Shown piece by piece: positions 10,038-52,470 of a stretch of DNA of 64,000 nucleotides. Location of the stretch: positions 7,303 through 71,302 of the forward strand of contig DATLVU010000052.1 in assembly GCA_035577025.1 (NCBI GenBank). Reading direction: 5' to 3'. The notes under the pieces are model-generated. The model searched no databases. It had not been told where the DNA came from and was given only the letters and a program-made list of their open reading frames with translations. A program made the translations under genes and the position numbers. Positions within the stretch are counted from its first letter, which is position 1. Each line of letters starts with the position of its first letter. Source of the DNA: Gemmatimonadales bacterium (lineage in GTDB: Bacteria > Gemmatimonadota > Gemmatimonadetes > Gemmatimonadales > GWC2-71-9).

Positions 10038-10159
10038 TTCCCCCACGCTACCTCGCATCGAAAAACAATTCACCTGGTGCACTGATGCACCAGTCCCGCG
10101 CGGACCAGCGGTTGGAGAATCCGGACAGGGCGTGGGGTCCGGTTCCCGAGTGGAGGTCT

Positions 10160-10188
10160 AAAGTACGGCTCGATTTAGAAAGCGTCAA
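10160..10188 (-). promoter_or_regulatory. putative sigma70-type promoter for the M23 peptidase gene
   Basis: The minus strand reads TTGACG, a 17-nt spacer, then TACTTT. It lies about 120 nt upstream of ATG 10037. Confidence 0.35.
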
Positions 10189-10229
10189 CACAGGCGATGG
10201 TGATGAAAATCACCGTCTTTGTGGGCTTT

Positions 10230-22084: not shown

Positions 22085-22130
22085 GGCGGTCGAGAGGCAA
22101 CGGCGGCGGTCAGGCGGGCTGGCGGTCACG
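22085..22130. repeat. left inverted-repeat arm flanking the four-helix-bundle gene (GGCGGTC units)
   Basis: GGCGGTCGAGAGGCAACGGCGGCGGTCA (22085-22112) is the reverse complement of 22538-22565 in 26 of 28 positions. It overlaps the gene's stop codon. Confidence 0.9.
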
Positions 22131-22472: not shown

Positions 22473-22537
22473 CACCCCACTAAGTGTCGCTCGTTTTGAT
22501 CGCGCGCCGGGATCCAATACGCGCGCGCCGTATCAAC

Positions 22538-22614
22538 TGACCGCCGCCGTTGATTCTCGACCGCCTGATCGCCGCATTGTCGTTTGACCGGCCGACCGCC
22601 TGACCGCCGCCGTT
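22538..22614. repeat. right inverted-repeat arm (two TGACCGCCGCCGTT copies)
   Basis: TGACCGCCGCCGTTGATTCTCGACCGCC at 22538-22565 plus a second partial copy, CGACCGCCTGACCGCCGCCGTT, at about 22594-22614. The arm abuts the gdh stop codon. Confidence 0.9.
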
Positions 22615-25138: not shown

Positions 25139-26497
25139 ATGGATACCGAACGCCTGTTGCATGAGCTCAGCGATTTCTTGCGCATTCCATCAGTGTCGAC
25201 CAGCACGTCTCACAACGCCGACTGCCGGGCCGCGGCGGAGTGGGTCGCGGGCGAGCTGCGCCGGCTCGGTTGTCGCGAGGTGCAGTTCCTCGCCAGCGGC
25301 ACGCACCCGGTGGTCTGGGGCGTGGGTCCGGACGTGCCCGGTGCGCCGACGCTCCTGATCTACGGGCACTATGACGTCCAGCCTCCCGAGCCGCTCGACC
25401 AATGGACGACGCCACCGTTCGATCCGGCGGTGCGGGACGGCCAGCTGTTTGCGCGCGGCGCGGCGGATGACAAGGGACAGGTGTTCTGTCTCCTCAAGGC
25501 AATCGAGGCCGGCGGCCGGCCGCCCATCAACTTCCGCTTCCTGATCGAAGGGGAGGAAGAGTACGGCAGCCGCGTCCTGTTCGAGCTGCTGCGACGGGAG
25601 CCCGAGCGGACCCGCGCCGATGTCGTCCTCATCGCCGACATGGCCTATGTCGCGCCCCGCTGGCCCGCCGTCTACACGACCCTGCGCGGGCTCTGCTACG
25701 CCGAGATCGCCGTCCGGACGGCGAGAACGGACCTTCACTCGGGCGAATTTGGCGGGGCCGCCCCCAACGCCCACGAGGAGCTCGCCCGGCTGCTCGGCCG
25801 CCTCAAGACGTCCGACGGGAAGATCCACATTCCCGGGTTCTATGCGCCGGTCAAACGACCGTCCAAGCGCGAGCTCGCCACCTGGAAACGCCTTCCATTC
25901 AAGGAGAGCGATTTCCTCAAGCATCGCGTACAGGCCAAAGCGCTCACGGGGCTCAAGGACCACTCGGTGCTGGAGCGCCTCTGGGCGCTCCCCACGTTCG
26001 AGATCCACGGCATCATGGGAGGGTTTACCGGCGATGGCGCGAAGACCGTGATTCCCGCCGAGGCCACCGCGAAAGTGAGTCTCCGTCTCGTGCCCGACCA
26101 GAAACTCAAGACCGTCGAGCGACAACTCACGGCCGCGGTCAAGCGGTTGGCGCCCAAGTACGTTCAGGCGAGCGTGAAATTCCTCCATGGCGCCGACCCC
26201 GCGACGGTGGAGGTGACGCACCCGGCCTTTGGCCTGTTGGATCAGGCCTTTCGTGAGGTGGTCGGGCGGGGGACCGTGCCAGCTCGCGCCGGGGGCTCTA
26301 TTCCCGTGGTCCCCGCGCTCGGCAAGGGTGGCGCCCCCGTGATCCTCACCGGGATCGGCCTGCCCGACGATCGCCTCCACGCTCCGAACGAAAAGCTGGA
26401 CTTGAAACAGTTGTGGGACGGTATCAAGGTTTTCCGACGGTTTTACGAGCTGCTGCGAGAAAAGGGCGTGGAGGGAAACCGTAGAGGAGAGTCGTAG
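25139..26497 (+). CDS. M20 family dipeptidase/peptidase
   Basis: LSDFLRIPSVS, IYGHYDVQP, ARGAADDKG and EGEEEYGS motifs. ATG 25139 (the ORF track begins at TTG 25130). Confidence 0.9.
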   Translation: MDTERLLHELSDFLRIPSVSTSTSHNADCRAAAEWVAGELRRLGCREVQFLASGTHPVVWGVGPDVPGAPTLLIYGHYDVQPPEPLDQWTTPPFDPAVRDGQLFARGAADDKGQVFCLLKAIEAGGRPPINFRFLIEGEEEYGSRVLFELLRREPERTRADVVLIADMAYVAPRWPAVYTTLRGLCYAEIAVRTARTDLHSGEFGGAAPNAHEELARLLGRLKTSDGKIHIPGFYAPVKRPSKRELATWKRLPFKESDFLKHRVQAKALTGLKDHSVLERLWALPTFEIHGIMGGFTGDGAKTVIPAEATAKVSLRLVPDQKLKTVERQLTAAVKRLAPKYVQASVKFLHGADPATVEVTHPAFGLLDQAFREVVGRGTVPARAGGSIPVVPALGKGGAPVILTGIGLPDDRLHAPNEKLDLKQLWDGIKVFRRFYELLREKGVEGNRRGES

Positions 26498-26520
26498 AGA
26501 AACCGCTCTACGTCGTTTTT
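26493..26520 (+). terminator. rho-independent terminator
   Basis: CGTAGAG (26493-26499) pairs with CTCTACG (26506-26512) across a 6-nt loop, then TCGTTTTT. It overlaps the stop codon of the M20 gene. Confidence 0.65.
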
Positions 26521-27178
26521 ATACGGTTTTTTTGCTGAGGTTCCGCAGTTTATTAATGTCATGCTGGCTCAGCCCGCGCCCGCCGTAGCGCTCTTCCTTC
26601 CACGGATCGCCCCGCATGTGATAGCCGTTCTGCTCCCAAAAACCTGGGACGTCCGCGTCGAGCAGCGTCAGGCCCCGAACCCACTTGGCACTCTTCCAGA
26701 AATACAAGTGCGGTACGAGCAGACGGGCGGGCCCACCATGTTCCGGCGTCAGCCGCTCGCCGCTCCACTTCAACGCGATGAGGTTGTCCGGTCGATCCAG
26801 ATCGCCGAGCGGGAGGTTCGTGGTGAAACCCTGCTCGGCCGACACCAGGCAAAACGCCGCCTCCGGCTTTACACCCGCGCGGGCGAGTAACAGCTGCACC
26901 GGTACGCCCTCGAAGTCGTTGTCGAGCCGGCTCCACCGCGTCACGCAATGGATGTCGCAGTGCACCGACTTACGCGGTAGCTCGACCAGCTCGTCGTACG
27001 TCAGCGTGAACGGTCGCTCGACCAGGCCGGACACTTCGAACGTCCACGTGCGAGTGTCGACGCGTGGGACGTCGCCGTAGTGCAGGACGGGCCACTTCGT
27101 GGTGAGCACCTGCCCGGGGGGGAGCCGCTCCTGAGACCCGGGATTCCGTTGGCGCAGCTCGTCGAGGTACTTGGTCAC
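26519..27178 (-). CDS. sulfite-oxidase-like molybdopterin oxidoreductase
   Basis: DIHCVTRWS, HGGPARLLVPHLYFWKSAKWV and GFWEQNGYHMRGDPWKEERY motifs. GTG 27178 is the proposed start; the longest ORF runs to 27268 and overlaps lipB. Confidence 0.85.
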   Translation of the reverse strand: MTKYLDELRQRNPGSQERLPPGQVLTTKWPVLHYGDVPRVDTRTWTFEVSGLVERPFTLTYDELVELPRKSVHCDIHCVTRWSRLDNDFEGVPVQLLLARAGVKPEAAFCLVSAEQGFTTNLPLGDLDRPDNLIALKWSGERLTPEHGGPARLLVPHLYFWKSAKWVRGLTLLDADVPGFWEQNGYHMRGDPWKEERYGGRGLSQHDINKLRNLSKKTV

Positions 27179-27182
27179 GCCA

Positions 27183-27884
27183 TCAATACGTCTGCGCCGT
27201 TGCGCTGGGACGCAGCTCCGGGACGTCGGCGTCTGCGGGTCTCGTCGTAACACCGAAGGCCGTCTCAAATCCTCGCATCACTGCTTGCACGGCTCGCCCC
27301 CGCAGGTTCCGCTCCCCGCTCCCCGCTCCCCGCTCCCTCTCGACCGATGTCATCTCCACTCCGGCGATTCCGCACGGCACGATCCGGTCGAACTGCGTGA
27401 GATCGGTGGTGACGTTCAGGGCGAACCCATGCCACGTCACCCATTGCTTCACGTGAATCCCGATGCTCGCGATCTTGCGGTTGGACGTCCAGACGCCCGT
27501 ATGCGGCGGGTTCCGGCCGGCTGGAATCCCGAGCTCGGCGAGCGCGCTGATGATCGCGTCCTCCAGGGTCCGGAGATACCAATGCAGGTCGCGTCGGTGG
27601 CCCGTGAGGTCGAGAATCGGGTAGCCGACGAGCTGGCCTGGGCCATGGAAGGTGACATCGCCCCCGCGCTCGATCTCGAAGATGTCGATTCCCTCGCGAC
27701 GCAGGACGTGTGCGGCGTGGGAGGCGCGACCCAGCGTCACCACAGGTGGGTGCTCGAGCAGCAGGAGGAGGTCCTTCGCCAACCGCCCATCGATGCGAGC
27801 CTGGGCGAGGGCGCGCTGCCACGGTAGCGCATCGCCGTAGGGCACGAGCCCGGCATCAAGGACCTGCAGCGTACGATCGCCCAC
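27183..27884 (-). CDS. lipB: lipoyl(octanoyl) transferase
   Basis: RGGDVTFHGPGQLVGYPILDL and IVPCGIAGVEMTS motifs. Confidence 0.93.
   Translation of the reverse strand: MGDRTLQVLDAGLVPYGDALPWQRALAQARIDGRLAKDLLLLLEHPPVVTLGRASHAAHVLRREGIDIFEIERGGDVTFHGPGQLVGYPILDLTGHRRDLHWYLRTLEDAIISALAELGIPAGRNPPHTGVWTSNRKIASIGIHVKQWVTWHGFALNVTTDLTQFDRIVPCGIAGVEMTSVERERGAGSGERNLRGRAVQAVMRGFETAFGVTTRPADADVPELRPSATAQTY
27311..27338. repeat. heptamer tandem array (GCTCCCC)x3 + GCTCCCT inside lipB
   Basis: Read directly from the sequence. It encodes RERGAGSGER near the LipB C-terminus. Its flanks resemble those of the E2 copy at 30645-30680. Confidence 0.95.
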
Positions 27885-27888
27885 TCTG

Positions 27889-28302
27889 CTACCCCTTCAC
27901 CGCGTCATCGTGGCTTCCCTTGACTGCCCACGCGCTTCCAGTGGCACCGACGATGAAGCTCGTGACCGCCCATGCGATCAACCCCGGCGTCTGGAGCCAG
28001 CGATCGACGGGCCATGCGATGAAACCGACCAGCATGGCTCCGACTGCGGACATCACTCCGATGACACCACGCTGCCACAGGTTCTCGAGCGCGCGCGTGC
28101 GTCGCCAGCCGAACGTCGCCGCGACCGCGAGACCGGCGAACGTCGCGGCGATGACCGGGTCTCCGGCGATGTCCTCGTAGCCGGCGGTGCCGGCGTGATG
28201 TTCCAGGGACCGGACGATGGCGAGCCCCGCGACGATGGTGCCGCCGCCGAGCCCCACACCACTCGTGAGCGCGCCGAGCCCGATCGCCAGAGGGTCTTTC
28301 AC
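27889..28302 (-). CDS. small integral membrane protein (about 4 TM), unknown function
   Basis: Hydrophobic segments throughout. Wedged between lpd and lipB with a 4-nt overlap with lpd. Confidence 0.6.
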   Translation of the reverse strand: MKDPLAIGLGALTSGVGLGGGTIVAGLAIVRSLEHHAGTAGYEDIAGDPVIAATFAGLAVAATFGWRRTRALENLWQRGVIGVMSAVGAMLVGFIAWPVDRWLQTPGLIAWAVTSFIVGATGSAWAVKGSHDDAVKG

Positions 28303-29690
28303 ATGTCCACCACTCGGCCGAGCGAGTCGAGCGCGGCCTGGGCCACCGCCTCCGACAATGTCGGATGCGCGTGGATCGCGAGCTCGACTTCCTCCACCGT
28401 GTATTCGTTTTCTCGGGCCACTGTCAGCTCGTGGATAAGCTCGGACGCCTGGGCGCCGACGATGTGCGCGCCGAGGATTTCACCGTACTTCTTCTCGCGC
28501 AAAATCTTCACGAACCCTTCGGTCTCACCCGTGCCGCGCGCCCGCCCGTTCGCGGAAAAGGGGAAGCGGCCGGCCACGTACTCGAGCTTTCGCTCCTTGC
28601 AGAGATCCTCGGTGAGCCCGATGCTGGCCACTTCGGGTTGGCAGTAGGTCACGCTGGGGACGTTGTCGTACTTGATCGAATGCGGCTTCTGGCCGGCAAG
28701 GAGCTCTGTGACATAAACGCCTTCGCGCATTCCCTTGTGGGCGAGCATCGGTGGGCCCGCCACGTCACCGATGGCGTAGTAGCCGGGCGCCGTGGTCTGG
28801 AGGTTCTTGTCCACCTTGATGAAACCGCGCTCGTTGATTTGGACACCGCACTCCGCCAGGCCGATGTTCTCGGTGTTCACGGCGCGCCCGGCGGCCATGA
28901 GGACGGCCGCCACCTCGAGCTTCTGGGTCGCGCCGCCCGCTTCGACCTCGAGCGTCACCTTGTCCTTGGCCGGCGTCCCTTTCTTGACCTTGGCTGCCGG
29001 GATCACCTCAATGCCCCGTTTCTTGTAGCTCCTCGTGAGCGCGTCCGACGCCTCGGCATCCTCGAGTGGCAGGATACGGGCAAGCGCTTCGATCAAGGTG
29101 ACCTTGGTTCCGAAGGCGTGGAAGATATTGGCGAACTCCATCCCCACGGCGCCCGCTCCGATGATGGCGAGCGACGTCGGCGCCTTCTCGAGGAACAGGG
29201 CCTCGTCGGAGGAGATCACGGTGGTCTTGTTGATCTCGAGTCCGATCTGCGGCAGACCTTTGACGCGCGACCCGGTCGCGATCAGGACGGCCTTCTTCGC
29301 GTCGTAGACGTCGCTGCCCACTTTCACCTTGCGCCCCGGTTGCAGGATGCCGGTGCCTCTGACGACGGTGACTTTATTCTTCTTCATCAGGAACTCGACG
29401 CCCTTCGAGTTCTGATCGCTCACCTTGCGTGAGCGCTGCATCGCGACTCCATAGTCGGTCTTCACGGCGCCGGCCTCGACGCCGAACTCCTTGGCGTCGC
29501 GCAGCATCGAGGCGATGTGCGCCGAGTGGAGGAGGGCCTTCGTAGGAATGCAGCCGATGTTGACGCACACGCCACCGAGCTTGTCCTTCTCGACGAGGGC
29601 CGTGGTCATGCCGAGCTGCGCCGAGCGGATCGCGGCGACGTAGCCCGCGGGCCCGCCGCCCAGAATGATGACGTCGAACGTATTCGCCAC
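28299..29690 (-). CDS. lpdA: dihydrolipoyl dehydrogenase (E3)
   Basis: GGGPAGYVAAIRSAQLG, the redox disulfide GGVCVNIGCIPTKALL, and a C-terminal HAHPTLSE. Confidence 0.95.
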   Translation of the reverse strand: MANTFDVIILGGGPAGYVAAIRSAQLGMTTALVEKDKLGGVCVNIGCIPTKALLHSAHIASMLRDAKEFGVEAGAVKTDYGVAMQRSRKVSDQNSKGVEFLMKKNKVTVVRGTGILQPGRKVKVGSDVYDAKKAVLIATGSRVKGLPQIGLEINKTTVISSDEALFLEKAPTSLAIIGAGAVGMEFANIFHAFGTKVTLIEALARILPLEDAEASDALTRSYKKRGIEVIPAAKVKKGTPAKDKVTLEVEAGGATQKLEVAAVLMAAGRAVNTENIGLAECGVQINERGFIKVDKNLQTTAPGYYAIGDVAGPPMLAHKGMREGVYVTELLAGQKPHSIKYDNVPSVTYCQPEVASIGLTEDLCKERKLEYVAGRFPFSANGRARGTGETEGFVKILREKKYGEILGAHIVGAQASELIHELTVARENEYTVEEVELAIHAHPTLSEAVAQAALDSLGRVVDM

Positions 29691-29702
29691 TGATGATTCT
29701 CC

Positions 29703-30974
29703 CTAAAGCAGCATTGCGAGTGGATTCTCGAGCATCTGTTTCAGCGTTTTCAAGAACGCCGCGCCCGTGGCGCCGTCGATGACGCGGTGGTCGCAGCTCA
29801 TGGTAATGCGCATCCGGCGCCCCGGCGCAAGCTGACCGCCCACGACCACCGGCTTCTGCGTGACGGACCCGATCGCGAGGATACCAGCCTCGGGCGGATT
29901 GATCACCGCCGTGAACTGGTCGATCTCGAACATCCCCAGGTTCGAGACGGAGAACGTCGATCCGGTGTACTCGGTCGGCTGGAGCCGACGGCTACGAGCC
30001 TTCTCGGCCAGCTCCCGCGCCTCCCGCCCGATCTCGACGAGCGATTTGCGATCGGCGTTCCGGATCACCGGAGTAATCAGCCCGTCCTCCACCGCCACCG
30101 CGATCCCGATGTGAACCTCGTTCCAGTAGCGAATGTGGTCGTCCTGGAACCAGGCGTTGCAGGCCCGATGCTTTACGAGCGCCAGTGCGGTCGCCTTGAT
30201 GATCACATCGTTGTAGGAAATCTTCCCCTGGTCCCCGCGCTGCTGGTTGAGCGCATCGCGTGCTTCGGCCGCCCGCTCCATGTCCACTTCGGTCGTAAGG
30301 AAGAAATGGGGGATGGGGCCGAGGGACGTGACGAGCCGCTTGGCGATGGTCTTGCGGATCTGGGTGAGGGGGACGTCGTCGTAGGCCGCTCCTCCTCCTC
30401 CCACCACCGGGGAGCGGGGAGCGGGGAGCGGTACCTCGCGCTGCACGGCTGGCTGCGTAGCTACGGCCCGACCTTCCAGGTCCCGCTTGGTGACCCGTCC
30501 GCCAGGACCCGTTCCGGTCACTAGCTTCAGGTCAACGCCGGCATCTTTTGCCATCCGTCTCGCCAGCGGGGAGGCCTTCACCCGCGTAGCGTCGGCTGGC
30601 GTCGCCACGGAGGGTACCGCTCCCCGCTCCCCGCTCCCGACGTTCAGGACCGCTCCCCGCTCCCCACTCCCTGTCGCCGCAGCGACCGCCGGCCGGGGGG
30701 AGGGCACGGAAGCCGGTGCGGCGGCGGACGTCTCTCCGGGGCCGAGAATGACCGCCACCACCTTACCCACCGGCACCGTCTGACCTTCGGCGACACTCAC
30801 CTGCCGCAGCACGCCGTCCGCGCGCGCGATCAGGTCCATCACGGCCTTGTCGGTCTCGACCTCCGCCAACGTGTCGCCGGTCTTCACGGCGTCGCCGTCG
30901 CCCTTGTGCCACTTCACCACGCGTCCCTCCTCCATCGTCGGGGAGAGCGCTTCCATGTAAACGTTCGTGGCCAC
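29703..30974 (-). CDS. pdhC: dihydrolipoamide acetyltransferase (E2) of the pyruvate dehydrogenase complex
   Basis: Lipoyl domain (LAEVETDKAVMDL), PSBD (ASPLARRMAKDAGVDLKLVTGTGPGGRVTKRDLE) and catalytic domain (SCDHRVIDGA). Confidence 0.93.
   Translation of the reverse strand: MATNVYMEALSPTMEEGRVVKWHKGDGDAVKTGDTLAEVETDKAVMDLIARADGVLRQVSVAEGQTVPVGKVVAVILGPGETSAAAPASVPSPRPAVAAATGSGERGAVLNVGSGERGAVPSVATPADATRVKASPLARRMAKDAGVDLKLVTGTGPGGRVTKRDLEGRAVATQPAVQREVPLPAPRSPVVGGGGAAYDDVPLTQIRKTIAKRLVTSLGPIPHFFLTTEVDMERAAEARDALNQQRGDQGKISYNDVIIKATALALVKHRACNAWFQDDHIRYWNEVHIGIAVAVEDGLITPVIRNADRKSLVEIGREARELAEKARSRRLQPTEYTGSTFSVSNLGMFEIDQFTAVINPPEAGILAIGSVTQKPVVVGGQLAPGRRMRITMSCDHRVIDGATGAAFLKTLKQMLENPLAMLL
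30409..30435. repeat. (GGGGAGC)x3-GGTACC, left arm of a 26-bp perfect inverted repeat inside E2
   Basis: 30410-30435 is the exact reverse complement of 30613-30638. Confidence 0.95.
30613..30672. repeat. GGTACC-(GCTCCCC)n right arm plus a 33-nt tandem duplication inside E2
   Basis: Arrays lie at 30619-30639 and 30652-30672. They encode GSGERGAVLNV followed by GSGERGAVPSV. Confidence 0.95.
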
Positions 30975-30990
30975 GGGGGGGAGGGCGGCG

Positions 30991-31974
30991 TCAGTCGAGG
31001 TACAGCGTGCGTCGCGCAGCGGCGACCACGCGCTCGACGCTCGGCTTCGCCAGGCGCTCGAGCTGCTTGTTGTACGGCATGGGCACGTCGGCCTGGGTCA
31101 CGCGCAGGACCGGCGCGTCGAGCTGGTCGAAAGCGTCCCGTTGGATCACGTCGACGACCTGCGCGCCGATGCCGCAGTGCGGCCACCCCTCCTCCACCAC
31201 GACCGCGCGGTTGGTGCGCGCCACGGACTCGAGGATCGCGGCTTCATCGAGCGGCCGCAGCGAGCGCAGGTCGAGCACTTCGGCCGAGACCCCTTCGTGT
31301 TCGGCGAGCTGCTCGGCGGCCTTAAGGGCGACGCTCACGGTCTTGGAGTGGCACACGATGGTAACGTCGCGACCCGGCCGTTTCACGTCGGCGCGACCGA
31401 GGGGAACGACGTGCTCCCCCTCCGGCACGTCGCCTTTGAGGTTGTACAGCATCTCGCCCTCGAGCACGATGACCGGGTTGTTGTCCCGGATCGCCGACTT
31501 GAGCAGACCCTTGGCATCCGCCGGCGTCGCGGGCGCCACGACCTTCAGGCCCGGGATGTGGGCCAGCCAGGACTCCCAGGCCTGGGAGTGCTGGGCCGCG
31601 AGCTGGAGCGCGGCGCCGTTCGGGCCGCGGAACACGATTGGGACCGGAATCTGGCCGCCCGACTCGTACAGCATCTTCGCGGCGGAGTTGACGATCTGGT
31701 CCAGGGCGAGGACCGCGAAGTTCCACGTCATGAACTCGACCACGGGCCGCAGACCCGCCATGGCGGCCCCGACGCCGATCCCCGCATAGCCCAGCTCCGC
31801 AATCGGGGTGTCCACCACGCGCGTCGGCCCGAACTCTTCGAGCAGGCCCCGGCTCACCTTGTAGGCACCCTGGTAGACACCGACTTCCTCCCCGATGAGG
31901 AACACGTCGGGATCCCGTTGCATCTCCTCGCGGAGCGCCTGATTGAGCGCATCGCGATAGGTGAGCGTGGCCAT
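30991..31974 (-). CDS. pdhB: pyruvate dehydrogenase E1 component subunit beta
   Basis: Begins MATLTYRDALNQALREEMQRDPDVFLIGEEVG. The start overlaps the pdhA stop (ATGA). The ORF-track extension to 32670 is a read-through of the same frame. Confidence 0.93.
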   Translation of the reverse strand: MATLTYRDALNQALREEMQRDPDVFLIGEEVGVYQGAYKVSRGLLEEFGPTRVVDTPIAELGYAGIGVGAAMAGLRPVVEFMTWNFAVLALDQIVNSAAKMLYESGGQIPVPIVFRGPNGAALQLAAQHSQAWESWLAHIPGLKVVAPATPADAKGLLKSAIRDNNPVIVLEGEMLYNLKGDVPEGEHVVPLGRADVKRPGRDVTIVCHSKTVSVALKAAEQLAEHEGVSAEVLDLRSLRPLDEAAILESVARTNRAVVVEEGWPHCGIGAQVVDVIQRDAFDQLDAPVLRVTQADVPMPYNKQLERLAKPSVERVVAAARRTLYLD

Positions 31975-32972
31975 CAGTCGGCGAGCACGTGCGTGGTGAG
32001 CTCGGCGGGATCGGGGTCCGGACTCGCGTCCGCGAATCGGACCGCTTCCTCCACTTCCGCGCGGATCTCCGCGTCGAGCGCGTCGAGGCCGGGCTGATCC
32101 AGCGTGCCCTCTTCCTTGAGCTTCATGGCGAGCTGCGAGATCGGGTCGCGCTTGCGCTGCTCTTCCACCTCTTCCTTGGTCCGATATACGCCGTGGAGCG
32201 GATCGGACATGGAGTGGCCCATGTAGCGATAGGTCCGCACCTCGAGCAGAGTGGGGTGCCCCCGCTTTCGGGCCCGTTCCACGGCCCGGCGCGTCGCGTT
32301 GTATACGGCGAGGGCGTCCATGCCATCCACGAGCTCGGCGGCCATGTCGTAGCTGCACGCGTGCTCCACCACGTCCGTCACGGCCGCGACGCGCTCGAAG
32401 GCCGTGCCCATGCCGTAACGGTTGTTCTCGCAGCAGAAGATGACCGGCAGCTTGTACACGGACGCCATGTTCAGCGCCTCGTGGAAGGCGCCGATATTGA
32501 CGGCCGCCTCTCCGAAGTAGCAGAGGCAGACCTGATCGCCGCCGCGATAGCGGATCGCGAAGCCGATGCCGGCCGCGAGGGGAATGTGGCCCCCGACGAT
32601 GCCGTGACCTCCCATGAAGCGCTTCTCGGCGTCGAACAGGTGCATCGACCCGCCTTTGCCCTTCGAGCACCCGGTCGCCTTCCCGAACAACTCGGCCATC
32701 ACGGCGTTGGGAGACACGCCCCGCACCAATGCCTGCCCGTGCTCGCGATACGAGGAGATCACGTAGTCGTCGTCGCGCAGCGCGGCGAGCGAGCCGACCG
32801 CGACCGCTTCCTGGCCGATGTACAAATGACAGAATCCGCCGATCTTGCCCAGCGCGTACGCTTCTGCGGCCTTCTCCTCGAAGTGCCGAATGAGGAGCAT
32901 CTGGCGGAGCATGCGGCGCTCCACGTCAGAGGACGCGGTCTTGTTGGCGGGCTGGGCGGTCGCCGTAGCCAT
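31974..32972 (-). CDS. pdhA: pyruvate dehydrogenase E1 component subunit alpha
   Basis: LLIRHFEEKAAEAYALGKIGGFCHLYIGQEA and KGKGGSMH motifs. The start is at Met58 of the tracked ORF, derived from the ORF-track frame. Confidence 0.92.
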   Translation of the reverse strand: MATATAQPANKTASSDVERRMLRQMLLIRHFEEKAAEAYALGKIGGFCHLYIGQEAVAVGSLAALRDDDYVISSYREHGQALVRGVSPNAVMAELFGKATGCSKGKGGSMHLFDAEKRFMGGHGIVGGHIPLAAGIGFAIRYRGGDQVCLCYFGEAAVNIGAFHEALNMASVYKLPVIFCCENNRYGMGTAFERVAAVTDVVEHACSYDMAAELVDGMDALAVYNATRRAVERARKRGHPTLLEVRTYRYMGHSMSDPLHGVYRTKEEVEEQRKRDPISQLAMKLKEEGTLDQPGLDALDAEIRAEVEEAVRFADASPDPDPAELTTHVLAD

Positions 32973-32991
32973 GGCGGTCGGGGGGGGGCGG

Positions 32992-33885
32992 CTAGCGGGA
33001 GGCGGACAGGTTCGCGCGCTCGACCTGCTCCCATGCGTGGTAGCTCGACCGCACGAGCGGTCCCGCCTCCACGTGGCGATACCCCATGGCCATGCCGAGG
33101 CGACGCAGCTCGGCGAACTCGTCGGGTCGATAGTAGCGCGCAATGGGAAGATGCTGGCTCGACGGACGGAGGTACTGGCCGACCGTCAGGATGTCGACAC
33201 CCTGCGCCCGCAGATCGCGCATCGCGACCAACAGCTCATCCCACTCCTCGCCGAGGCCGCAGATGAGGCCAGATTTGGTAAGCAGCCTCGCGTCGAGCGC
33301 CTTTGCTCGCCGCAACAGCTCGAGCGCCCGTGGATAGCGTCCCCCCGGCCTGGCCAGGCGGTACAGCCGCTCGACCGTTTCGAGATTGTGGTTGAGGATA
33401 TCGGGCTTCGCCTCTACCACGATCCTCAGTGCCTCGGCGCTGCCCTTGAAGTCGGGGATGAGCACCTCGACGGACGTCCCGGGGGTGCGTCGCCGGATCT
33501 CGGCGATCGCGGCCGCGAACATCTCCGCGCCGCCGTTGGGCAGGTCGTCGCGGTCCACGCTCGTGATGACCACGTGCCGGAGCCCCATCCGCTCGACCGC
33601 CGTGGCGAGGCGGACCGGTTCGTGGCGGTCGAGAGCGGCCGGCGTGCCGTGGGCGACCGCGCAGTAAGTGCAGTTTCGAGTGCAGACGTCGCCCAGGATC
33701 ATGAACGTGGCGGCGCGGTGCTCCCAGCACTCCCCGATGTTGGGGCAGTGCGCCTCTTCGCACACCGTGTGGAGCGACAAGTCTCGCATGAGGTGCTTCA
33801 GCTCGGTGTAGTTCGGGCCCCCGGGGGCAGGCACCTTGAGCCATGCGGGTTTACGAGCGGCGAGCTGGGTGAGCGTTGTGGCCAT
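32992..33885 (-). CDS. lipA: lipoyl synthase
   Basis: CEEAHCPNIGECW and the radical-SAM motif CTRNCTYCAV. Confidence 0.95.
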   Translation of the reverse strand: MATTLTQLAARKPAWLKVPAPGGPNYTELKHLMRDLSLHTVCEEAHCPNIGECWEHRAATFMILGDVCTRNCTYCAVAHGTPAALDRHEPVRLATAVERMGLRHVVITSVDRDDLPNGGAEMFAAAIAEIRRRTPGTSVEVLIPDFKGSAEALRIVVEAKPDILNHNLETVERLYRLARPGGRYPRALELLRRAKALDARLLTKSGLICGLGEEWDELLVAMRDLRAQGVDILTVGQYLRPSSQHLPIARYYRPDEFAELRRLGMAMGYRHVEAGPLVRSSYHAWEQVERANLSASR

Positions 33886-33933
33886 CAGGATTCGGAAGAT
33901 AGTGGAGCCCGAGAGACGGCAAAAGACCGAATT

Positions 33934-34938
33934 TCAACTAGGCGGTTGATCGCCCTCCGGGCGCTTCTTCAAGCGCCGCAGCTCTTCTTCCAGCTCCGTC
34001 GTCGTGGACAGCAGCCCGTCGGCGATGTCGGCCAGTTCCTCGGCATCCCGCCACTGGCGCTCCAGCTCCGCGACTTCCGCGCGCTCATCCACCGCCATCT
34101 CGAGCGCCAGGCGTCGTTCTGGCGCCAGGCTCCGCAGCGTGAGCTCCCGGCGGGCGACGTCGTGAATCAGCTGCTCAGGTCCCCCCGCGCCTTCCACCAG
34201 GCGCGCCGCGTCCTCGACGCGCTGACGGCCCGAGCGGGCCAGGGCCAGATACGTCAGCCCTTGTCGCAAGGCCATCTGTGCGTCGCGGCCGACCAGCATC
34301 GCCCCCTCGGAGTGACAATTGGGGCAACTCAGAATGAGCGCGATGTCGCTCTGGGCCTGTCTCACCACGCGTGCATGCGCGATGTGACGCGCCCGGACCA
34401 GGAGTACGCTCCCGCAGCGCTCGCAGATGGGTGGCTCGGCCACGCTCACCGAGCGACGGCCGATCATCCGCGTGTAGAGCCATTGAGCCCCGCGCGGCAC
34501 GTTCCACACGAATACGCCGAGTGAGCCGCCGGCCGTCACGTTCACGGCCACGGCAAGGCCCACGGCGGCGATCGTGACGGGCAACACGAACTTGAGCTGC
34601 TCGCGACGCCGAGCCTTGAGACGCTCACCGTAGCGCCACGTCGCGAATTCCAACCGCCGGGGCTTTCCGACGCGCACCAAGTCATACTGCTGCCACCGGA
34701 TCAGGGCGACCTGCTCCGTGGCCGCCGCCACGCGGCCTTCAGCGGCGGCGCGGGCCAGCGCCTCGATTTTCTCGAGACGGTCCTCGAGCGGCGCGAGGTT
34801 CCAGCGGGAGCACTTCGGACAGATCACCCAGAGCCGAGCTTTCCACTCGTCGAACGCGAGCCGCTGGCCCACGCCGAGACCGGAGGGACCGCCATCGCCC
34901 GGAAGGTTGCCGTTACAGAACGCGCAGGTGCGATACAT
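33934..34938 (-). CDS. hypothetical membrane protein with two CxxC...CxxC zinc-ribbon-like motifs
   Basis: CAFC...CPKC at the N-terminus, a central TM segment (VLPVTIAAVGLAVAVNV), CERC...CPNC, and an acidic coiled-coil tail. I recognise no family. Confidence 0.6.
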   Translation of the reverse strand: MYRTCAFCNGNLPGDGGPSGLGVGQRLAFDEWKARLWVICPKCSRWNLAPLEDRLEKIEALARAAAEGRVAAATEQVALIRWQQYDLVRVGKPRRLEFATWRYGERLKARRREQLKFVLPVTIAAVGLAVAVNVTAGGSLGVFVWNVPRGAQWLYTRMIGRRSVSVAEPPICERCGSVLLVRARHIAHARVVRQAQSDIALILSCPNCHSEGAMLVGRDAQMALRQGLTYLALARSGRQRVEDAARLVEGAGGPEQLIHDVARRELTLRSLAPERRLALEMAVDERAEVAELERQWRDAEELADIADGLLSTTTELEEELRRLKKRPEGDQPPS

Positions 34939-34952
34939 CGGGGTGTCCGGTG

Positions 34953-36059
34953 CTAGGTGCCCGGTGGAAAACGGTCGATGCCGAATGGCGTGAGGTCCAC
35001 GTCCGTCTCGCCCTCGGCGAGCAGATCAGCGGTGATCTCGCCCGTCAGCGCCGCCAGCAGGATCCCGTTGCGCCCGTGACCCGCGGCGTACCACAGTCGT
35101 TCGACCGCGGGATCGCGCCCCAGAATGGGCCGGCCGTCCGGCGTCGCCGGGCGGAGTCCGGCCCACATCCGCTGCACCGGTTGTATGCGCAGCGCCGGGA
35201 GTAGCCGGACGGCGCCGCGGAAGATCTGGGCGAGCCCCTCGTTCGTGACGCGCGCGTCATAGCCGGCACGCTCCATGGTGCTGCCGAGCAGCGCCTCGCC
35301 GCCGCGCGCGAGTACGTAGCCGTGGTCCTGATAGAGGATCGCCGGGGGAGTCCCTTCGGGCCATGCGGTGGCCGCCATCTGACCGCGCACGGGCTCGATC
35401 GGCAGCGCGCGGGGCAGGCCGCGGACCTGTGGTGACCACACGCCCGCCGCGAGCACGACGTGCTCGACCGGAGTCGTGCCGCGTGCTGTGACGACGCCGG
35501 TGATCCGATCCCCCCCGATCTGGAGGGCTTCGACCTTCTCGACATGCTGGGTCGCGCCGAGCCGGCGAGCGTCGGCGAGACACGCGCGAGCGAGGGCTTC
35601 AGGGTCCAGGGCTCCGTCCTCGGGAGCGAACAGGGCGCCGAGGCAATCCGGACTGGCCCCCGGCCAACGCTCGCCGATTTCCCCGGCATCGAGCCAGTCG
35701 CACCGAAGGCCCGCCTGGCGCTGCCGAGCCACGTCTTCCTTGAGCCGGTCGGCCGTGGGCTCGTCGAACGCGAGGGAGGCGATCCCGGCGCGCCAGAAGC
35801 CGATGTCGATGCCGGTGGTCTCCTGGAGCGCCGGGCCGAGCGGCTCGTACAGGTCGCGGGCGCGCACGGAGAGGGAGACGAGTGCCTCATCGCCCGGTTC
35901 AATCTGGGCGGCCAGCATGCCGGCGGAGGCGGGGGACGCGGCGGCCGGGGCCGGGCCGGGCTCGAAGATCGCGACTTCCAATCCACGACGCGCTGCCGAC
36001 CGGGCGCACGCGGCGCCCACGGCCCCCCCGCCGACGATCGCGACTGCGACGGCCTTCAC
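34953..36059 (-). CDS. FAD-dependent oxidoreductase (glycine oxidase ThiO-like, DAO family)
   Basis: VAIVGGGAVGAACA dinucleotide-binding motif and a C-terminal AGHGRNGILLA typical of the DAO family. Confidence 0.8.
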   Translation of the reverse strand: MKAVAVAIVGGGAVGAACARSAARRGLEVAIFEPGPAPAAASPASAGMLAAQIEPGDEALVSLSVRARDLYEPLGPALQETTGIDIGFWRAGIASLAFDEPTADRLKEDVARQRQAGLRCDWLDAGEIGERWPGASPDCLGALFAPEDGALDPEALARACLADARRLGATQHVEKVEALQIGGDRITGVVTARGTTPVEHVVLAAGVWSPQVRGLPRALPIEPVRGQMAATAWPEGTPPAILYQDHGYVLARGGEALLGSTMERAGYDARVTNEGLAQIFRGAVRLLPALRIQPVQRMWAGLRPATPDGRPILGRDPAVERLWYAAGHGRNGILLAALTGEITADLLAEGETDVDLTPFGIDRFPPGT

Positions 36060-37315: not shown

Positions 37316-38886
37316 GGGTGCTCCGGAGGGGCGTCGGAGTACTCCTTGAGCTTGAGCGTCACCTGGCCGAACGAGAAGTTGGACTGCAACGCCACCATGA
37401 CGCGCAGGCTGTCATCGGAGAGCCACATCCGGGCATCGGCCTTCTCGGCGAAGATCCCGCCCCCGTTGGGAATGCGCGGCCGCACGACGATCGTGTTCCA
37501 CTTTCGTCCCGCAGCGCCGACTTTCTCCCGCTTGAGCACCTCGACGATGACTGGATTGCGCTCGGGACGAAAGTAGCGGTTGTACTCGTACTTCTTCCCG
37601 ACTTCGAGCGGCACCGTGCGAATCCAGTAGAGAAACGCGGCGTCGTCGAGCGGATCGGCGACGGTCGCGACCGTGGTGTCGTGGCCCGCCTCGCGGTAAA
37701 AGCCTGAATCCGGATAGATCTCGAACCTCCGCTCCCACGACTTGCCCTTCTCCTCGGTCTGATTCACAAACCGGCGGGAGTGGAAATCGCGACGCCCGAC
37801 CCACGATTCGAGGTTCTGATGAATGTGATACCAGAGCGCGCCCCCGTCGATCAGGAACACGAAATGGACCGATTCGACACCCCGGACCGTGTCGATGCCC
37901 GCGACCTGCATCGTCGCCGTGCCGACGCTGAAGGGTCCGTAGCGGGCGCCATAGACCAGGCGCTCTCCGACCGGGAACGGGACCGCCAGGGGCTGGGGAG
38001 CGGGAGCGGGAGCGGGAGCCGGAGCGGGGGCGGCCGGGGTCGGTGGAATCGCGCGGGCAGTATTTGAGTCGGACTGGCACGGCCGGGGCGGGGTCGAGTC
38101 CACGCGCGCACTGTCCGACTGCGCCTGCAAGGTCACGGCGACGAGAAGGAGCGCCGTCGCGGCGCGGGCGGCCCGGATCACCGCGCGGGCGCGCCAGGCA
38201 CCGAGGAGCTGGCGCCACGGCCGAACCCGCGACGGACGCTGCACCAGGTCGTAGCGCGTCGCGGCCTGGACGGTGTCGAGCCGACGCGCGTGCGGCGCAA
38301 GGCGTGCGACCAGCTCCGCACTCGCGCACCAGCCGTCCGTCCGAAGGAAGGGCGCGGCATCGCCGCGCAGCGCCTGGCGCAGAATGATCAGCCGTAGCGC
38401 GAGATATCCCGAGACGCTGTCCCGCACCCCGGCGATGCGCAGCAGCCGTGGGGCCCAGCGGCGGGCGAAACGGAGCGCCTGCGAAACCCGACCCCCCCCC
38501 TGCTCCTCCAGGAGCTCGGCCACCACGAGATCCGCGCCCGATTCGAGGCGCTTCACGAGGTCTTCCATCGCCTCCGGCGAATGGGCGAAATCGGCGTGCA
38601 GGGTAATCGCGCAATCCCGCTTGGGCCGGTCCGTCCGTTGCAGGGCGAGGCGGAGGAGGGCCTCGAGGCTCCGCGCGTACCCGTGGCGCTCCCTGTGCGT
38701 GACGATCGTCATCGGCAGCACCTTGGCGTAGGAGGCGAGCACCTCCGCGGTGTTGTCCGTCGAGGCGTCGTCGAGCACCAGGAGCTGATACTCGCGCGGA
38801 AACGCCGTGAAAACCTGGCGCACCTTCCAGAGCACCAACCCAGCGGTGCGGGCTTCGTTATGCACGGGCACGCAGACGTAGATCAT
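37312..38886 (-). CDS. glycosyltransferase family 2 fused to a DUF3108-like domain
   Basis: The N-terminus (IYVCVPVHNE...LVLDDASTDNT) is GT2. A TM segment follows, then a (PA)n linker. The C-terminal domain (ERLVYGARYGPFSVGTATMQV...) resembles DUF3108. ATG 38886. Confidence 0.75.
   Translation of the reverse strand: MIYVCVPVHNEARTAGLVLWKVRQVFTAFPREYQLLVLDDASTDNTAEVLASYAKVLPMTIVTHRERHGYARSLEALLRLALQRTDRPKRDCAITLHADFAHSPEAMEDLVKRLESGADLVVAELLEEQGGGRVSQALRFARRWAPRLLRIAGVRDSVSGYLALRLIILRQALRGDAAPFLRTDGWCASAELVARLAPHARRLDTVQAATRYDLVQRPSRVRPWRQLLGAWRARAVIRAARAATALLLVAVTLQAQSDSARVDSTPPRPCQSDSNTARAIPPTPAAPAPAPAPAPAPQPLAVPFPVGERLVYGARYGPFSVGTATMQVAGIDTVRGVESVHFVFLIDGGALWYHIHQNLESWVGRRDFHSRRFVNQTEEKGKSWERRFEIYPDSGFYREAGHDTTVATVADPLDDAAFLYWIRTVPLEVGKKYEYNRYFRPERNPVIVEVLKREKVGAAGRKWNTIVVRPRIPNGGGIFAEKADARMWLSDDSLRVMVALQSNFSFGQVTLKLKEYSDAPPEHP
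37995..38031. repeat. GGGGAGC-(GGGAGC)n hexamer array encoding the (PA)n linker
   Basis: Read directly from the sequence. This is a hexamer variant of the GGGGAGC unit and stays in frame as PAPAPAPAPAPAP. Confidence 0.9.
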
Positions 38887-38897
38887 GGCCCTGCAAT

Positions 38898-39956
38898 CTA
38901 GACGAGCGACCGATAGACAGCCAAGACACCGGCGGCCATGGCGGACGCGGTGAACTGCGCGGGAAGGGGGAAGGGGGAAGGGTGATCCAGTGCTTTGATC
39001 ACCTTCCGCGCGAGTGCCGCCGCGTCGCCCACCGGAACGATCCACTCGGACGGCACGACCTCGGGGAGGCCGCCCGCCGCCGTCGCGACGACCGGTTTCC
39101 CGAGCGCCAGGGCGTGGAGCACGACGGTCCCCAGGCCTTCCGCTCGCGACGACATGACGACGACGTCGCTCTCCGCCAGGAGCGCGTCGGCCCGGGCCAC
39201 GTGCCCAAGCAGGTGGACGCGATCGGCTAGCCCCAGGCGTCGTACCTCGACATCCAGCGCGTCACGCTCGGGGCCGTCTCCCGCGATGATCCAATGCAGG
39301 TCGGGACACGACGACCGCGCCGTGTGCGCGGCCAGTAGCAGCGTCCGCTGGTCCTTCGGCGGCTCGAGCGCGGCGACGTTGGCCACGAGCAGCGTCCCCC
39401 CCGGCAACCCGAGCGACTCCCGAATCGCGAAGGGCGGCGCGGCGGCGCGGCGGATCTCGTCTGGGTCGATGCCCGATCGGACAACCCGCACCTCCCCGGG
39501 CGGGAACCCCGCCGCGAGCAACGCCGCCCGCGCCGCTTCGGAGATCGCGATCACCGTGTCGGCCTGGCGCAATGCGCTGCGCCGCCCCGCGGGGAACACC
39601 ACCCGGCGCGTCGCCACGAGTCGGGGGGGGGGGACGCGGCCCGCGAGCCCGAGAAACCGACGCGCCCAGAGCGCGAGGGTCACCGCATGCGCGTTGTGGG
39701 CGTGGATGACATCGGGAGGCCAGGCGAGCGCTTCCACGGCGATGCGCCACGACGCTCGCGGGTCGAGCCCCATGGCCCACGGGACCTCCCGCACCGTGAC
39801 GCCGTCGGCGGCCGTGCGACGCGCCAGCTCGCTGGCGCGCTTCGTGATGAGGCGCTGCTCCACGTCCGGCTCGCGGGCCAGCTCCCGCGCGAGCAGGCGT
39901 ACCTGATCCTGCCCGCCCCGGTACTCGCGGCCGGAGTCAACGTGCAGGACGCGCAC
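38898..39956 (-). CDS. glycosyltransferase family 4 (GT-B)
   Basis: MRVLHVDSG...GGQDQV at the N-terminus and a C-terminal EGLG...LHALALGKPVVATAAGGLPEVV (E-X7-E region). Confidence 0.85.
   Translation of the reverse strand: MRVLHVDSGREYRGGQDQVRLLARELAREPDVEQRLITKRASELARRTAADGVTVREVPWAMGLDPRASWRIAVEALAWPPDVIHAHNAHAVTLALWARRFLGLAGRVPPPRLVATRRVVFPAGRRSALRQADTVIAISEAARAALLAAGFPPGEVRVVRSGIDPDEIRRAAAPPFAIRESLGLPGGTLLVANVAALEPPKDQRTLLLAAHTARSSCPDLHWIIAGDGPERDALDVEVRRLGLADRVHLLGHVARADALLAESDVVVMSSRAEGLGTVVLHALALGKPVVATAAGGLPEVVPSEWIVPVGDAAALARKVIKALDHPSPFPLPAQFTASAMAAGVLAVYRSLV
38961..38981. repeat. heptamer tandem array (GGGAAGG)x3 inside the GT4 gene
   Basis: Read directly from the sequence. It encodes PSPFPLP near the C-terminus. 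Confidence 0.95.
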
Positions 39957-41936: not shown

Positions 41937-42630
41937 CCGAGGTCGGTTGCGAGGGCCGGACCTTCGGCTCGTGGCGCTCGCGCTGGCGCGCGGGGACGCC
42001 GCGCGCCGCGCGCGTTACGAGCGCGTGATGCTCGAGCAGGGACCCGATGAGCTCCTCGACGAGCCGGGCCTGCTCGAGGCCCTGCTCGCGGTGCGCACGC
42101 TCGCCGTTCCATCGCCCGCGCTGTTCGCCTACGTCGCGGTCCGTCACACGCTCCGGGCCGCCGGCGTCGACGACCGGCTGCTCGCCGACTACCTCGCGGC
42201 GCTCCTGCTGGAGTTCGGCGATCACGACCGGCGTTCCCGCGTGCGGAGTGGGGCCGACGACGAGACCTATCACTATCTGGTCGACATGGTGGAGGACCTC
42301 GCGGGGCTCGACGACGCTGGAGAACGCGGCTTCCTGCTGCGTGTGCACCTCGGGAACTACAGCCTGTGGCTTGCCGGTCTGTTTCCTGATTACATCGCCG
42401 CCCGGCGCTCGCGGAAAGGTGGGCCCGACCTCCCGTATTACGACGAGCTGGGCCGCCAGGGCTACCGCCTCGCCGCGGCGCATCGCCTCGCCGAACGCTT
42501 CGGTGTGGCTCCGATCTATCGCGCCGCCGCCGACCGGTTCCCGACGCTCCGCGTGGCGTTCAATCGCCTGAGCGACCGGGTGTTCTTCCCGAACGTCAGT
42601 ACTCCCGAGAAGATACTTCGAAATCTGTGA
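41920..42630 (+). CDS. hypothetical protein
   Basis: 236-aa ORF from ATG 41920, or from the internal ATG 42025. No recognisable motif. Convergent with the SCP2 gene. Confidence 0.5.
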   Translation: MILANIRGRLRGPDLRLVALALARGDAARRARYERVMLEQGPDELLDEPGLLEALLAVRTLAVPSPALFAYVAVRHTLRAAGVDDRLLADYLAALLLEFGDHDRRSRVRSGADDETYHYLVDMVEDLAGLDDAGERGFLLRVHLGNYSLWLAGLFPDYIAARRSRKGGPDLPYYDELGRQGYRLAAAHRLAERFGVAPIYRAAADRFPTLRVAFNRLSDRVFFPNVSTPEKILRNL

Positions 42631-42688
42631 GCCGTGAGCGGTGAGCGGGACTGTAACGACCTCTCACCGCTTACCGCTCCCCGCTCAC
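42627..42688. repeat. inverted heptamer arrays forming a long hairpin between convergent genes (likely bidirectional terminator)
   Basis: GTGAGCC GTGAGCG GTGAGCG (42627-42647), a 16-nt spacer, then TCACCGC TTACCGC TCCCCGC TCAC (42664-42688). It overlaps both stop codons (42628-42630 and 42685-42687). Confidence 0.85.
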
Positions 42689-52454: not shown

Positions 52455-52470
52455 TGGACTGGTGCCTTTA

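Follow-up and report, generated by a model that had tools for sequence, protein, structure and literature searches.

The window analysed here, a stretch of 64,000 nucleotides from a Gemmatimonadales bacterium (GenBank:DATLVU010000052.1, positions 7,303 to 71,302), contains a pyruvate dehydrogenase (PDH)-type E2 gene in which a perfect inverted repeat made of 7-nt units is written into both of the flexible linkers flanking the peripheral-subunit-binding domain (PSBD). This repeat is an allele-specific member of a class of heptamer palindromes that occurs throughout the Gemmatimonadales. Its arms change together from lineage to lineage, evolve slowly, keep a strict polarity, and lie within a linker-PSBD-linker cassette that is mosaic among otherwise near-identical genomes. 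Our favoured explanation, held tentatively at a probability of roughly 0.45, is a self-templating palindrome that acts at the DNA level, is tolerated as linker, and is co-inherited with a cassette exchanged by recombination.

Structure of the inverted repeat in the E2 gene

An inverted-repeat search of the window revealed two arms of 26 nt each, at 30410-30435 (GGGAGCGGGGAGCGGGGAGCGGTACC) and 30613-30638, which were complementary at 26 of 26 positions and formed the longest inverted repeat in the window with arms no more than about 600 nt apart. The spacer between them (30436-30612) was 177 nt, equal to 59 codons, and Pfam placed the whole PSBD coding sequence (30474-30581, minus strand) within it. 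The exact repeat claimed in an earlier note on this DNA was thus confirmed to the base, and the arms do bracket the PSBD-coding segment as the note had stated. The host open reading frame (ORF) is on the minus strand (29703..30974, 423 aa), as are the features described in this section. On the mRNA, the 5′ arm (30613..30638) is G-rich (GGGAGCGGGGAGCGGGGAGCGGTACC, period 7, 3.1 copies) and encodes residues 113-121 (GSGERGAVP) of linker 1, and the 3′ arm (30410..30435) is C-rich (GGTACCGCTCCCCGCTCCCCGCTCCC, period 7, 3.4 copies) and encodes residues 180-189 (VPLPAPRSPV) of linker 2. The duplication of the right arm with a 33-nt period, also described earlier, was located at 30649-30671 by a direct-repeat search (22 of 23 positions identical, one mismatch). 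This outer G-rich array, for which TRF gave a period of 7, reads GGGAGTGGGGAGCGGGGAGCGGT in mRNA sense, encodes residues 102-109 (GSGERGAV) of linker 1, and is also 96% complementary to 30410-30432. One heptamer DNA is therefore read as GSGERGAV one way and PLPAPRSP the other, and is usable as linker in either orientation.

The gene is a 2-oxoacid dehydrogenase E2 of the PDH type, as identified by its domains and neighbouring genes. Pfam matched Biotin_lipoyl (PF00364) at residues 9-76, E3_binding (PF02817, the E3/E1-binding PSBD) at residues 132-167 with E = 1.6e-16, and 2-oxoacid_dh (PF00198) at residues 198-423, giving the order lipoyl domain, linker 1, PSBD, linker 2 and catalytic domain. 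The operon consists of lipA, E1 alpha (PF00676), E1 beta (PF02779/PF02780), E2, E3 (PF07992/PF02852), a small ORF and lipB.

Occurrence of the repeat in orthologues

Scanning a genome collection with the E2 protein gave 80 loci, all from Gemmatimonadales or Gemmatimonadota metagenome-assembled genomes (MAGs) and with 57-88% identity, and a metagenome scan with the same protein gave 80 further soil contigs (loci are cited below by L numbers). E2 was parsed into domains and linkers in 158 sequences, the window gene being counted in. These comparison data are metagenome/short-read or MAG assemblies centred on one operon, and many of the pairs drawn from them are phylogenetically non-independent. 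The best full-length metagenome matches had only 84% protein identity because the cassette lowers the score; apart from L102, the scans with E2 gave no same-species match at ≥99%.

The reading frame was open through the arrays in all 158 analysed orthologues. The longest perfect match between linker 1 and the reverse complement of linker 2 was at least 12 nt in 99 of them, at least 16 nt in 59 and at least 20 nt in 32, and control comparisons of the same 158 at ≥16 nt gave 4 direct, 0 reversed-only and 0 complement-only matches. For the first 73 orthologues, 27% reached ≥16 nt, as compared with 0.07% for codon-shuffled linkers and 2.3% for cross-species linker pairings. Within the window, the heptamer dimer GGGGAGCGGGGAGC with no more than one mismatch occurred 8 times against 0.22 expected from shuffles, and none of 100 shuffles reached 8. 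Arm lengths in E2 clustered at about 16-29 nt, and the identical 26-mer of the window was found in both arms of L002, L083, L086 and L115. The inverted repeat is non-random, and it is the relationship between the arms, rather than their sequence, that is conserved.

A coincidence produced by protein-level selection would require that a Gly-rich and a Pro-rich linker happen to use complementary codons. GGN (Gly) and NCC (Pro/Ala/Ser/Thr) codons are reverse complements, and therefore some background complementarity of the linkers is expected. Against this explanation, the shuffles that keep codon composition fall far below the 27-37% of orthologues that reach ≥16 nt, the third codon positions are invariant in the arms, odd units are mirrored in both arms, and the same architecture is present in non-coding spacers. 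Together, the direct, reversed-only, complement-only, codon-shuffle and cross-species controls rule out chance and codon composition, and coincidence is effectively refuted. The earlier note would have taken the repeat for an isolated coincidence had close relatives possessed equivalent linkers without a DNA-level repeat and had the genome shown no other copies; both close and distant relatives carry repeats, and another copy of the array is present in LipB (27309-27337).

Concerted change and slow evolution of the arms

The repeat unit is lineage-dependent, with GGGGAGC, GGGAAAC, GGGATGC, GGGGGAC and GGGAGCA among those in use, and both arms switch together. Linkers 1 and 2 accordingly read GSGERGAV and PLPAPRSP with GGGGAGC, GSGKRETGN and FPVSRFPLP with GGGAAAC, GSGMRDAG and HPASRIPHP with GGGATGC, and GRGTGDEG and PSPVPRPP with GGGGGAC, so that the proposal of a linker usable in either orientation, first made for the window unit, extends to the other units. 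Less regular arms were seen in L041, which has a non-canonical CGTGCGCAGTGCGCCGG arm, and in L020, which has a 52-nt arm with a non-heptamer core. Both linkers contained arrays in 105 distinct cassettes. Of these, 53 had the same dominant unit in linkers 1 and 2 (random pairing: mean 11.6, maximum 22 in 2000 permutations), and 84 had dominant units no more than one substitution apart. Even lone variant units were mirrored at the corresponding position of both arms (L004, L011, L016, L021 and L052); slippage within each array alone is therefore insufficient to account for them. Across homologues, pairing has been preserved by changes in both arms in at least five unit classes. The perfection of the repeat is conserved beyond the neutral expectation and changes appear to have been transferred between its arms, the pattern expected of a palindrome maintained by template switching.

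Within unit classes, all codon positions of the arms were near-invariant, with the third positions of the PSBD reaching a consensus of only 40-60%. A less circular test used 90 cassette pairs picked solely on a PSBD third-position divergence of 0.12-0.40; in these, the proportion of differing positions was 5.1% in the arms, 23.1% in the rest of the linkers and about 32% among the third positions of the PSBD. These results indicate that the arms are constrained at the nucleotide level.

Such constraint could be exerted through a functional RNA stem, in which the arms pair in the polycistronic PDH mRNA as a perfect duplex of about 20-28 bp and selection keeps them complementary. The stem could be a site for RNase III or other processing, a barrier to 3′ exonucleases or a shield of the C-rich arm from Rho, and could tune the expression of E2 and E3; local counterparts would form inside linker 2, in the E2-E3 spacer and at pairs of convergent genes. 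The long-range mRNA stem suggested by the earlier note is indeed predicted thermodynamically. It dominates the predicted RNA fold (-187.8 kcal/mol, z = -5.0), in which the minimum-free-energy structure pairs the outer copy (30649-30671) with the C-rich arm, and the E2 repeat region folded as single-stranded DNA gave -84.9 kcal/mol (z = -4.8). Complementarity kept while the sequence changes, arms slower than synonymous sites, the clustered arm lengths, and sister hairpins at the expected mRNA sites (E2 stop/E3 ribosome-binding site and between convergent genes) all agree with such a stem, and the order with the G-rich arm first would fit co-transcriptional pairing of the C-rich arm as it emerges. 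In selected RNA helices, however, G·U is usually much more acceptable than A·C. On the sense strand, the non-Watson-Crick positions of the extended E2 duplexes comprised 27 G·U and 32 A·C, and those of the non-coding E2-E3 spacer hairpins 6 G·U and 15 A·C. As there is no excess of G·U, the complementarity looks strand-symmetric and hence DNA-level, and the wobble signature of mRNA selection that the earlier suggestion would call for was not seen. In addition, ribosomes should hold open a stem whose arms are 177-280 nt apart in a translated ORF, intact E2 genes exist that have no 5′ arm or no arrays at all, and a cmscan search of 26000-35000 against Rfam at E ≤ 1 gave no matches. We regard a functional RNA stem as rather unlikely.

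A hypervariable linker-PSBD-linker cassette

L102 was 98.3% identical to the window over 7.3 kb (33970-26707) outside a block at 30385-30752 (minus strand), which comprises linker 1, the PSBD and linker 2. Inside this block, 183 of 398 aligned columns differed, as compared with 3 of 221 on its left and 10 of 678 on its right, and the E2 arms were of GGGAAAC in L102 and of GGGGAGC in the window; the cassette has been replaced wholesale. The block edges for this pair were ..VVA|VILGPGE and ..GGGGAA|YDDVPLTQ, and in most pairs examined the divergent block stretched from where the lipoyl domain ends (..VVAVI|A.PGE) to ..AY.DVPLTQ. In total, 34 locus pairs had lipoyl and catalytic DNA at least 95% identical and PSBD DNA only 65-88% identical, mostly with different arm units. 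In 55 close pairs (317 kb aligned), 28 unalignable blocks were found, of which 11 were the cassette and 4 more were indels of heptamer hairpins.

Between alleles, 13-20 of the 34 PSBD codons had synonymous-only differences and 4-8 had non-synonymous ones. Third positions of the PSBD differed at 53-74%, i.e. were saturated, with only 2-10 of 73 third positions differing in the lipoyl domain of those pairs. In close pairs the PSBD third-position divergence was tri-modal, at 0, about 0.25 and about 0.55-0.6, and some cassettes with the same unit were closer to each other than their own flanks (L107-L118, PSBD 0.971 and flank 0.878). Smooth local hypermutation, considered since the PSBD of L102 lacks a close relative, is disfavoured by the tri-modality, by changes that are mostly synonymous or conservative, and by the cassettes closer than their flanks; these features therefore point to an exchange of old alleles. 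The pool of cassette alleles is large, as the PSBD of L102 had no relative above 79%.

It was also noticed that the window PSBD (30474-30581) has many A/T-ending codons (AGA, AAA, GAT, GTT, CTA, GGA, GGT, CCT and GAA), with A/T at about 11 of 34 third positions as counted by eye, which is unusual for a genome of 65-70% GC and may be a trace of a separate history of the cassette.

The concentration of divergence raises the possibility that the arms are a recombination-promoting module, the inverted G-rich arrays being a hot spot of double-strand breaks that drives replacement of the whole cassette. This could take the form of a hairpin-prone fragile site, of G-quadruplex-prone tracts or of inward Chi-like sequences, with repair by homologous or homeologous recombination and crossovers just outside the arms. 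In keeping with this, no other divergent block recurs as often as the cassette among near-identical genomes, the block edges lie just outside the arms at domain edges, the left boundary in L018/L126 is at the start of the 5′ array, and the LipB array borders a hyper-divergent C-terminal segment in several close pairs. Moreover, the G-first order places the G-rich strands 3′-inward, which would be the Chi orientation for breaks between the arms (RecBCD/AddAB). On the other hand, the units are numerous and vary even inside a species (GGGGAGC in the window, GGGAAAC in L102), and therefore a single Chi-like word does not fit; three G-tracts, too few for a canonical quadruplex, are present in most E2 arms; the mirrored variant units need arm-to-arm templating or pairing, which a recombination module leaves unexplained; and boundaries at domain edges are also expected from plain loss of homology in the linkers. 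A recombination module appears improbable to us. A G-quadruplex was likewise rejected as a general explanation, as the LipB array has about four G-tracts but most E2 arms have three and the spacer hairpins have GG-only units.

The earlier note had also suggested that the arms could act as a recombination substrate, with inversion or deletion variants between them as the sign to look for, and the comparison did not support this. None of the 158 orthologues had an inverted segment, the PSBD being always forward and in frame, and the sole deletion in linker 1, found in one lineage, was not between the arms. An inversion in the window, read from the sequence, would run into a stop after 9 codons, and no site-specific recombinase gene was present among the neighbours lipA, E1 alpha, E1 beta, E3, the small ORF and lipB. 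A tblastn search with two PSBD peptides revealed no second PSBD or silent donor in the 64-kb window or within ±10 kb in 160 loci. A phase-variable contingency locus was rejected because no analysed orthologue has its arrays out of frame; in the only gene that is frameshifted (L077, a long-read MAG with E2 at 10001-11311 and GGGAAGG arrays), the shift, which may be real or an assembly error, is at the end of the lipoyl domain, upstream of the arrays.

The heptamer element is dispensable in some lineages. Arrays were lacking in 13 of 151 cassettes, and the distant Gemmatimonadota L075 and L078-L080 have plain Ala/Pro linkers. In L160 (E2 at 1368-2525), hardly anything of linker 1 remains (..VIASPGETVGATRASPLARR..) and the 5′ arm is gone with it, the ORF is intact and the 3′ arm is decaying.

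Polarity and distribution of heptamer repeats

In 1.29 Mb of loci, 119 perfect runs of period 7 were found, as compared with 21, 16, 4, 5, 1 and 0 for periods 5, 6, 8, 9, 10 and 11, respectively; period-7 arrays were thus about 6-fold or more commoner than those of other periods, and the window has the same bias. Wherever such arrays formed an inverted repeat, the G-rich arm was 5′ of the C-rich arm (123 of 123; 75 distinct E2 and 48 elsewhere, at about a dozen independent sites). Unit series are specific to the site, and a single genome has units that vary between its sites.

Compact hairpins were present within linker 2 itself, as in L028, where 28-nt arms enclose a 39-nt loop, and similarly in L001, L008 and L060. 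Another site is the spacer between the E2 stop codon and the E3 ribosome-binding site, where a hairpin has its own units (GCGGAAT, GCGGAAC, GCGGATT or GCGGAGT). In L137 it occupies 4206-4289 with GCGGAAC units, and many loci have an equivalent; it is absent from the window, in which only 12 nt separate the E2 stop from the E3 start. This 83-nt hairpin was present in some and absent from other genomes that are 95-97% identical, the absences were clean, and no target-site duplication was evident at the indel. Some loci had more heptamer hairpins upstream of the operon. In the window, an intergenic palindrome of GTGAGCG-type units with the G-rich arm first (42625..42688) is located between the stops of the convergent ORFs 41752-42630(+) and 42685-43167(-). 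The palindrome, for which an RNA fold of -47.8 kcal/mol (z = -4.2) was predicted, resembles a bidirectional terminator or 3′-end hairpin made of heptamers.

The array in lipB (27309..27337, minus strand, GGGGAGC x4.1) is G-rich on the sense strand and has no inverted partner. It is in frame, close to where the catalytic domain of LipB ends (..TSVERERGAGSGERNLR..), in an ORF (27183-27884, minus strand) that matches LplA-B_cat. At the orthologous site, a G-rich heptamer array without inverted partner was found in every one of 55 related loci, with a lineage-specific unit and usually about 4 copies, outliers having about 7 (+3 units). Several near-identical pairs had a hyper-divergent C-terminal segment directly downstream of this array, e.g. 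3 versus 64 differences in the flanking 150 nt on the two sides. Coupling of the LipB and E2 units in trans was considered, as several genomes have one unit at both sites, but L102 shares its LipB array with the window and has other E2 arms, and therefore there is no tight coupling.

A mobile in-frame palindromic element, similar to a miniature inverted-repeat transposable element (MITE) or a Rickettsia palindromic element, would account for this distribution if the arms were terminal inverted repeats spread by a transposase. The local versions in linker 2 (L028; L001, L008 and L060) do look like compact elements of about 95 nt, the E2-E3 hairpin is polymorphic for presence, and in-frame palindromic insertions are known in Rickettsia (PMC10969869). 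However, the arms in the window flank an ancestral, universally conserved domain and not element-specific DNA; since the units of a genome vary between its sites, they do not amount to one dispersed consensus; a target-site duplication is not evident; and no transposase turned up beside the operon, although no search was aimed at transposases. A mobile element is thus very unlikely.

Proposed maintenance of the palindrome

In the self-templating palindrome that we favour, a G-rich 7-nt array is always followed, 5′ to 3′, by its own reverse complement, and the arms occupy the only two places of E2 that tolerate arbitrary sequence, the flexible linkers flanking the PSBD. Since 21 nt, or 7 codons, hold exactly three heptamers, the stop-free G-rich strand is read through all three frames as Gly/Ser/Glu/Arg, and its complement as Pro/Leu/Ala/Arg/Ser, both peptides being acceptable as linker. 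Copying at the DNA level, through intramolecular template switching or short-tract conversion as in quasipalindromes, would give one arm the sequence of the other, and slippage would homogenise the units within each array. Because the linkers are unalignable between alleles and the 102-nt PSBD would be too diverged for internal recombination, the block of about 370 nt would behave as one unit without recombination inside it. It would be swapped as a whole between strains by homologous recombination in the flanking lipoyl- and catalytic-domain DNA, by which each cassette allele would keep its matched pair of arms. The element itself would be mainly tolerated and not required. Perfect inverted repeats conserved beyond expectation have been described in Proteobacteria, for which the authors invoke preferential correction by template switching (PMC5941160). 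Of the three roles suggested in the earlier note, namely an mRNA stem, a recombination substrate and a seed of linkers, the last is the best supported.

Several points weigh against this explanation. The arms evolve 4-6-fold slower than the comparison sites. Under the standard theory of concerted evolution, unbiased copying between arms should not slow long-term divergence, and the slow arms therefore argue for selection at the nucleotide level or biased correction instead of pure neutrality. The absolute G-first polarity (123 to 0) is not predicted by simple template switching and suggests a process reading 5′ to 3′. Template switching is also much less efficient over spacers of 150-300 nt than over short loops, and passive tolerance leaves unexplained why the cassette makes up 11 of the 28 unalignable blocks. 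Assembly chimeras could in principle lie behind some of the mosaics, yet the pattern recurs across many independent projects. In view of the slow arms, the polarity and the concentrated diversity, the rival explanations are kept open.

On a broader possibility, which we regard as doubtful, the heptamer palindromes would belong to an undescribed nucleic-acid system of the Gemmatimonadales with an obligate G-first order, and the E2 block would be a co-adapted switchable cassette, the arms of which are selected as a stem or a recombination module; unmatched recombinants would be removed, and ancient alleles would persist and cross species. If so, the cassette would be a 'supergene' in a core metabolic enzyme, kept for reasons unrelated to the protein.

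Should the favoured palindrome prove correct, a short repeat would have been written in opposite orientations into both linkers of a multidomain enzyme, the linker peptides being the two strands of one motif, and forces at the nucleotide and not the protein level would set linker sequence across a bacterial order. It would also mean that an essential housekeeping gene of abundant soil bacteria contains a sharp, recurrent hot spot of allelic diversity, which bears on the binning of MAGs, on strain-resolved metagenomics and on E2 as a marker. With more than 150 cassettes, at least five unit classes and strict polarity, these genes are a natural data set on the upkeep of perfect inverted repeats.

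Comparison with known repeat systems

Rickettsia palindromic elements are palindromic repeat DNA inside protein genes, translated as a tolerated extra peptide (PMC10969869). The E2 arms resemble them and other in-frame MITEs in being translated in frame (GSGERGAV, PLPAPRSP), and the local hairpins of linker 2 (L001, L028) are similar in size and behaviour. In contrast to those elements, the E2 repeat consists of tandem heptamers and not of a fixed consensus of 100-150 bp, and in the window an ancestral domain separates the arms. Full-length copies that are dispersed and near-identical, with target duplications, were not found in the 64 kb or in the E2-centred loci, in which only the heptamer array recurs, in LipB.

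Mechanistically closest are the inverted repeats kept by template switching (PMC5941160), which share the perfection over evolutionary time and the copying of changes between arms; the mirrored variant units and the lack of an RNA wobble signature agree with them. The E2 repeat differs from quasipalindromes, the documented cases of which have short loops, by its domain-coding spacer of 150-300 nt, and the G-first polarity and heptamer period are additional.

The short tandemly repeated repetitive (STRR) sequences of cyanobacteria are a further analogy; as Mazel et al. are said to have described in 1990, these are reportedly short tandemly repeated heptanucleotides, lineage-specific and dispersed, with several unit types per genome. 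The repeats described here share the 7-nt unit, the dispersal and the several unit types, and the loci have an excess of 7-nt tandem repeats. STRRs are described as mainly intergenic tandem arrays, and their function has apparently been open for decades, and the present repeats raise anew the question of a role for 7-nt periodic repeats. They differ from STRRs in belonging to a different phylum, and neither obligate G-first inverted pairs nor a translated linker is known to have been described for STRRs.

Repetitive extragenic palindromic (REP) sequences occur outside genes, follow one consensus throughout the genome and are linked to REP-associated tyrosine transposases (RAYT). Similar to REP sequences and bacterial interspersed mosaic elements, the E2-E3 spacer hairpin and the palindrome at 42625-42688 are short GC-rich palindromes at gene ends or between cistrons. 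The heptamer repeats are, unlike these, often intragenic and have several units per genome.

The cassette itself is reminiscent of those of pilin and surface-antigen genes, in that it is a short, sharp-edged block with saturated synonymous divergence whose alleles are shared across backgrounds. In contrast to these, it belongs to a cytoplasmic core-metabolic enzyme, the amino-acid sequence of its PSBD is conserved between alleles, and silent donors are absent from the window and from ±10 kb of the loci. A literature search found no paper on heptanucleotide repeats of Gemmatimonadetes/Gemmatimonadota, and none on mosaic or hypervariable E2 linkers or PSBD or on an inter-domain cassette.

Other repeats in the window and related loci

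Two orphan heptamer arrays were located elsewhere in the window, the coding status of arrays outside E2 and LipB being judged by a heuristic of GC content at third codon positions. One (14276-14301, GTGAGCG x3.7) is apparently translated on the minus strand as the Pro-rich peptide PLTAHRSPL, and the other (38959-38982, GGGAAGG x3) apparently as HPSPFPLP on the minus strand, near a C-terminus; L011 has a related site (YALDHPSPFPLPPRF). A hexamer array with an in-frame period (37996-38033, GGGAGC x6.3) is close in sequence to the GGGGAGC heptamer.

The region 52033-52590 contains a 52-nt tandem repeat (2.3 copies, 95% match) with a perfect small hairpin, CCCCGGGC GCAA GCCCGGGG, and has a 25-nt inverted copy 412 nt upstream (52033-52057 versus 52470-52494). 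This repeat differs from the heptamers and is REP-like or MITE-like. Finally, inverted repeats of 16-29 nt sharing a GGCGGCGGTC(A/G)GGCGGTCAA-like sequence, with arms 260-560 nt apart, recur in several genomes (window, 22098-22117 / 22537-22614; L044, 19003-19540; L064, 18484-18777; L065, 18350-18952; L069, 19575-20090) and may represent a MITE or another bounded element.

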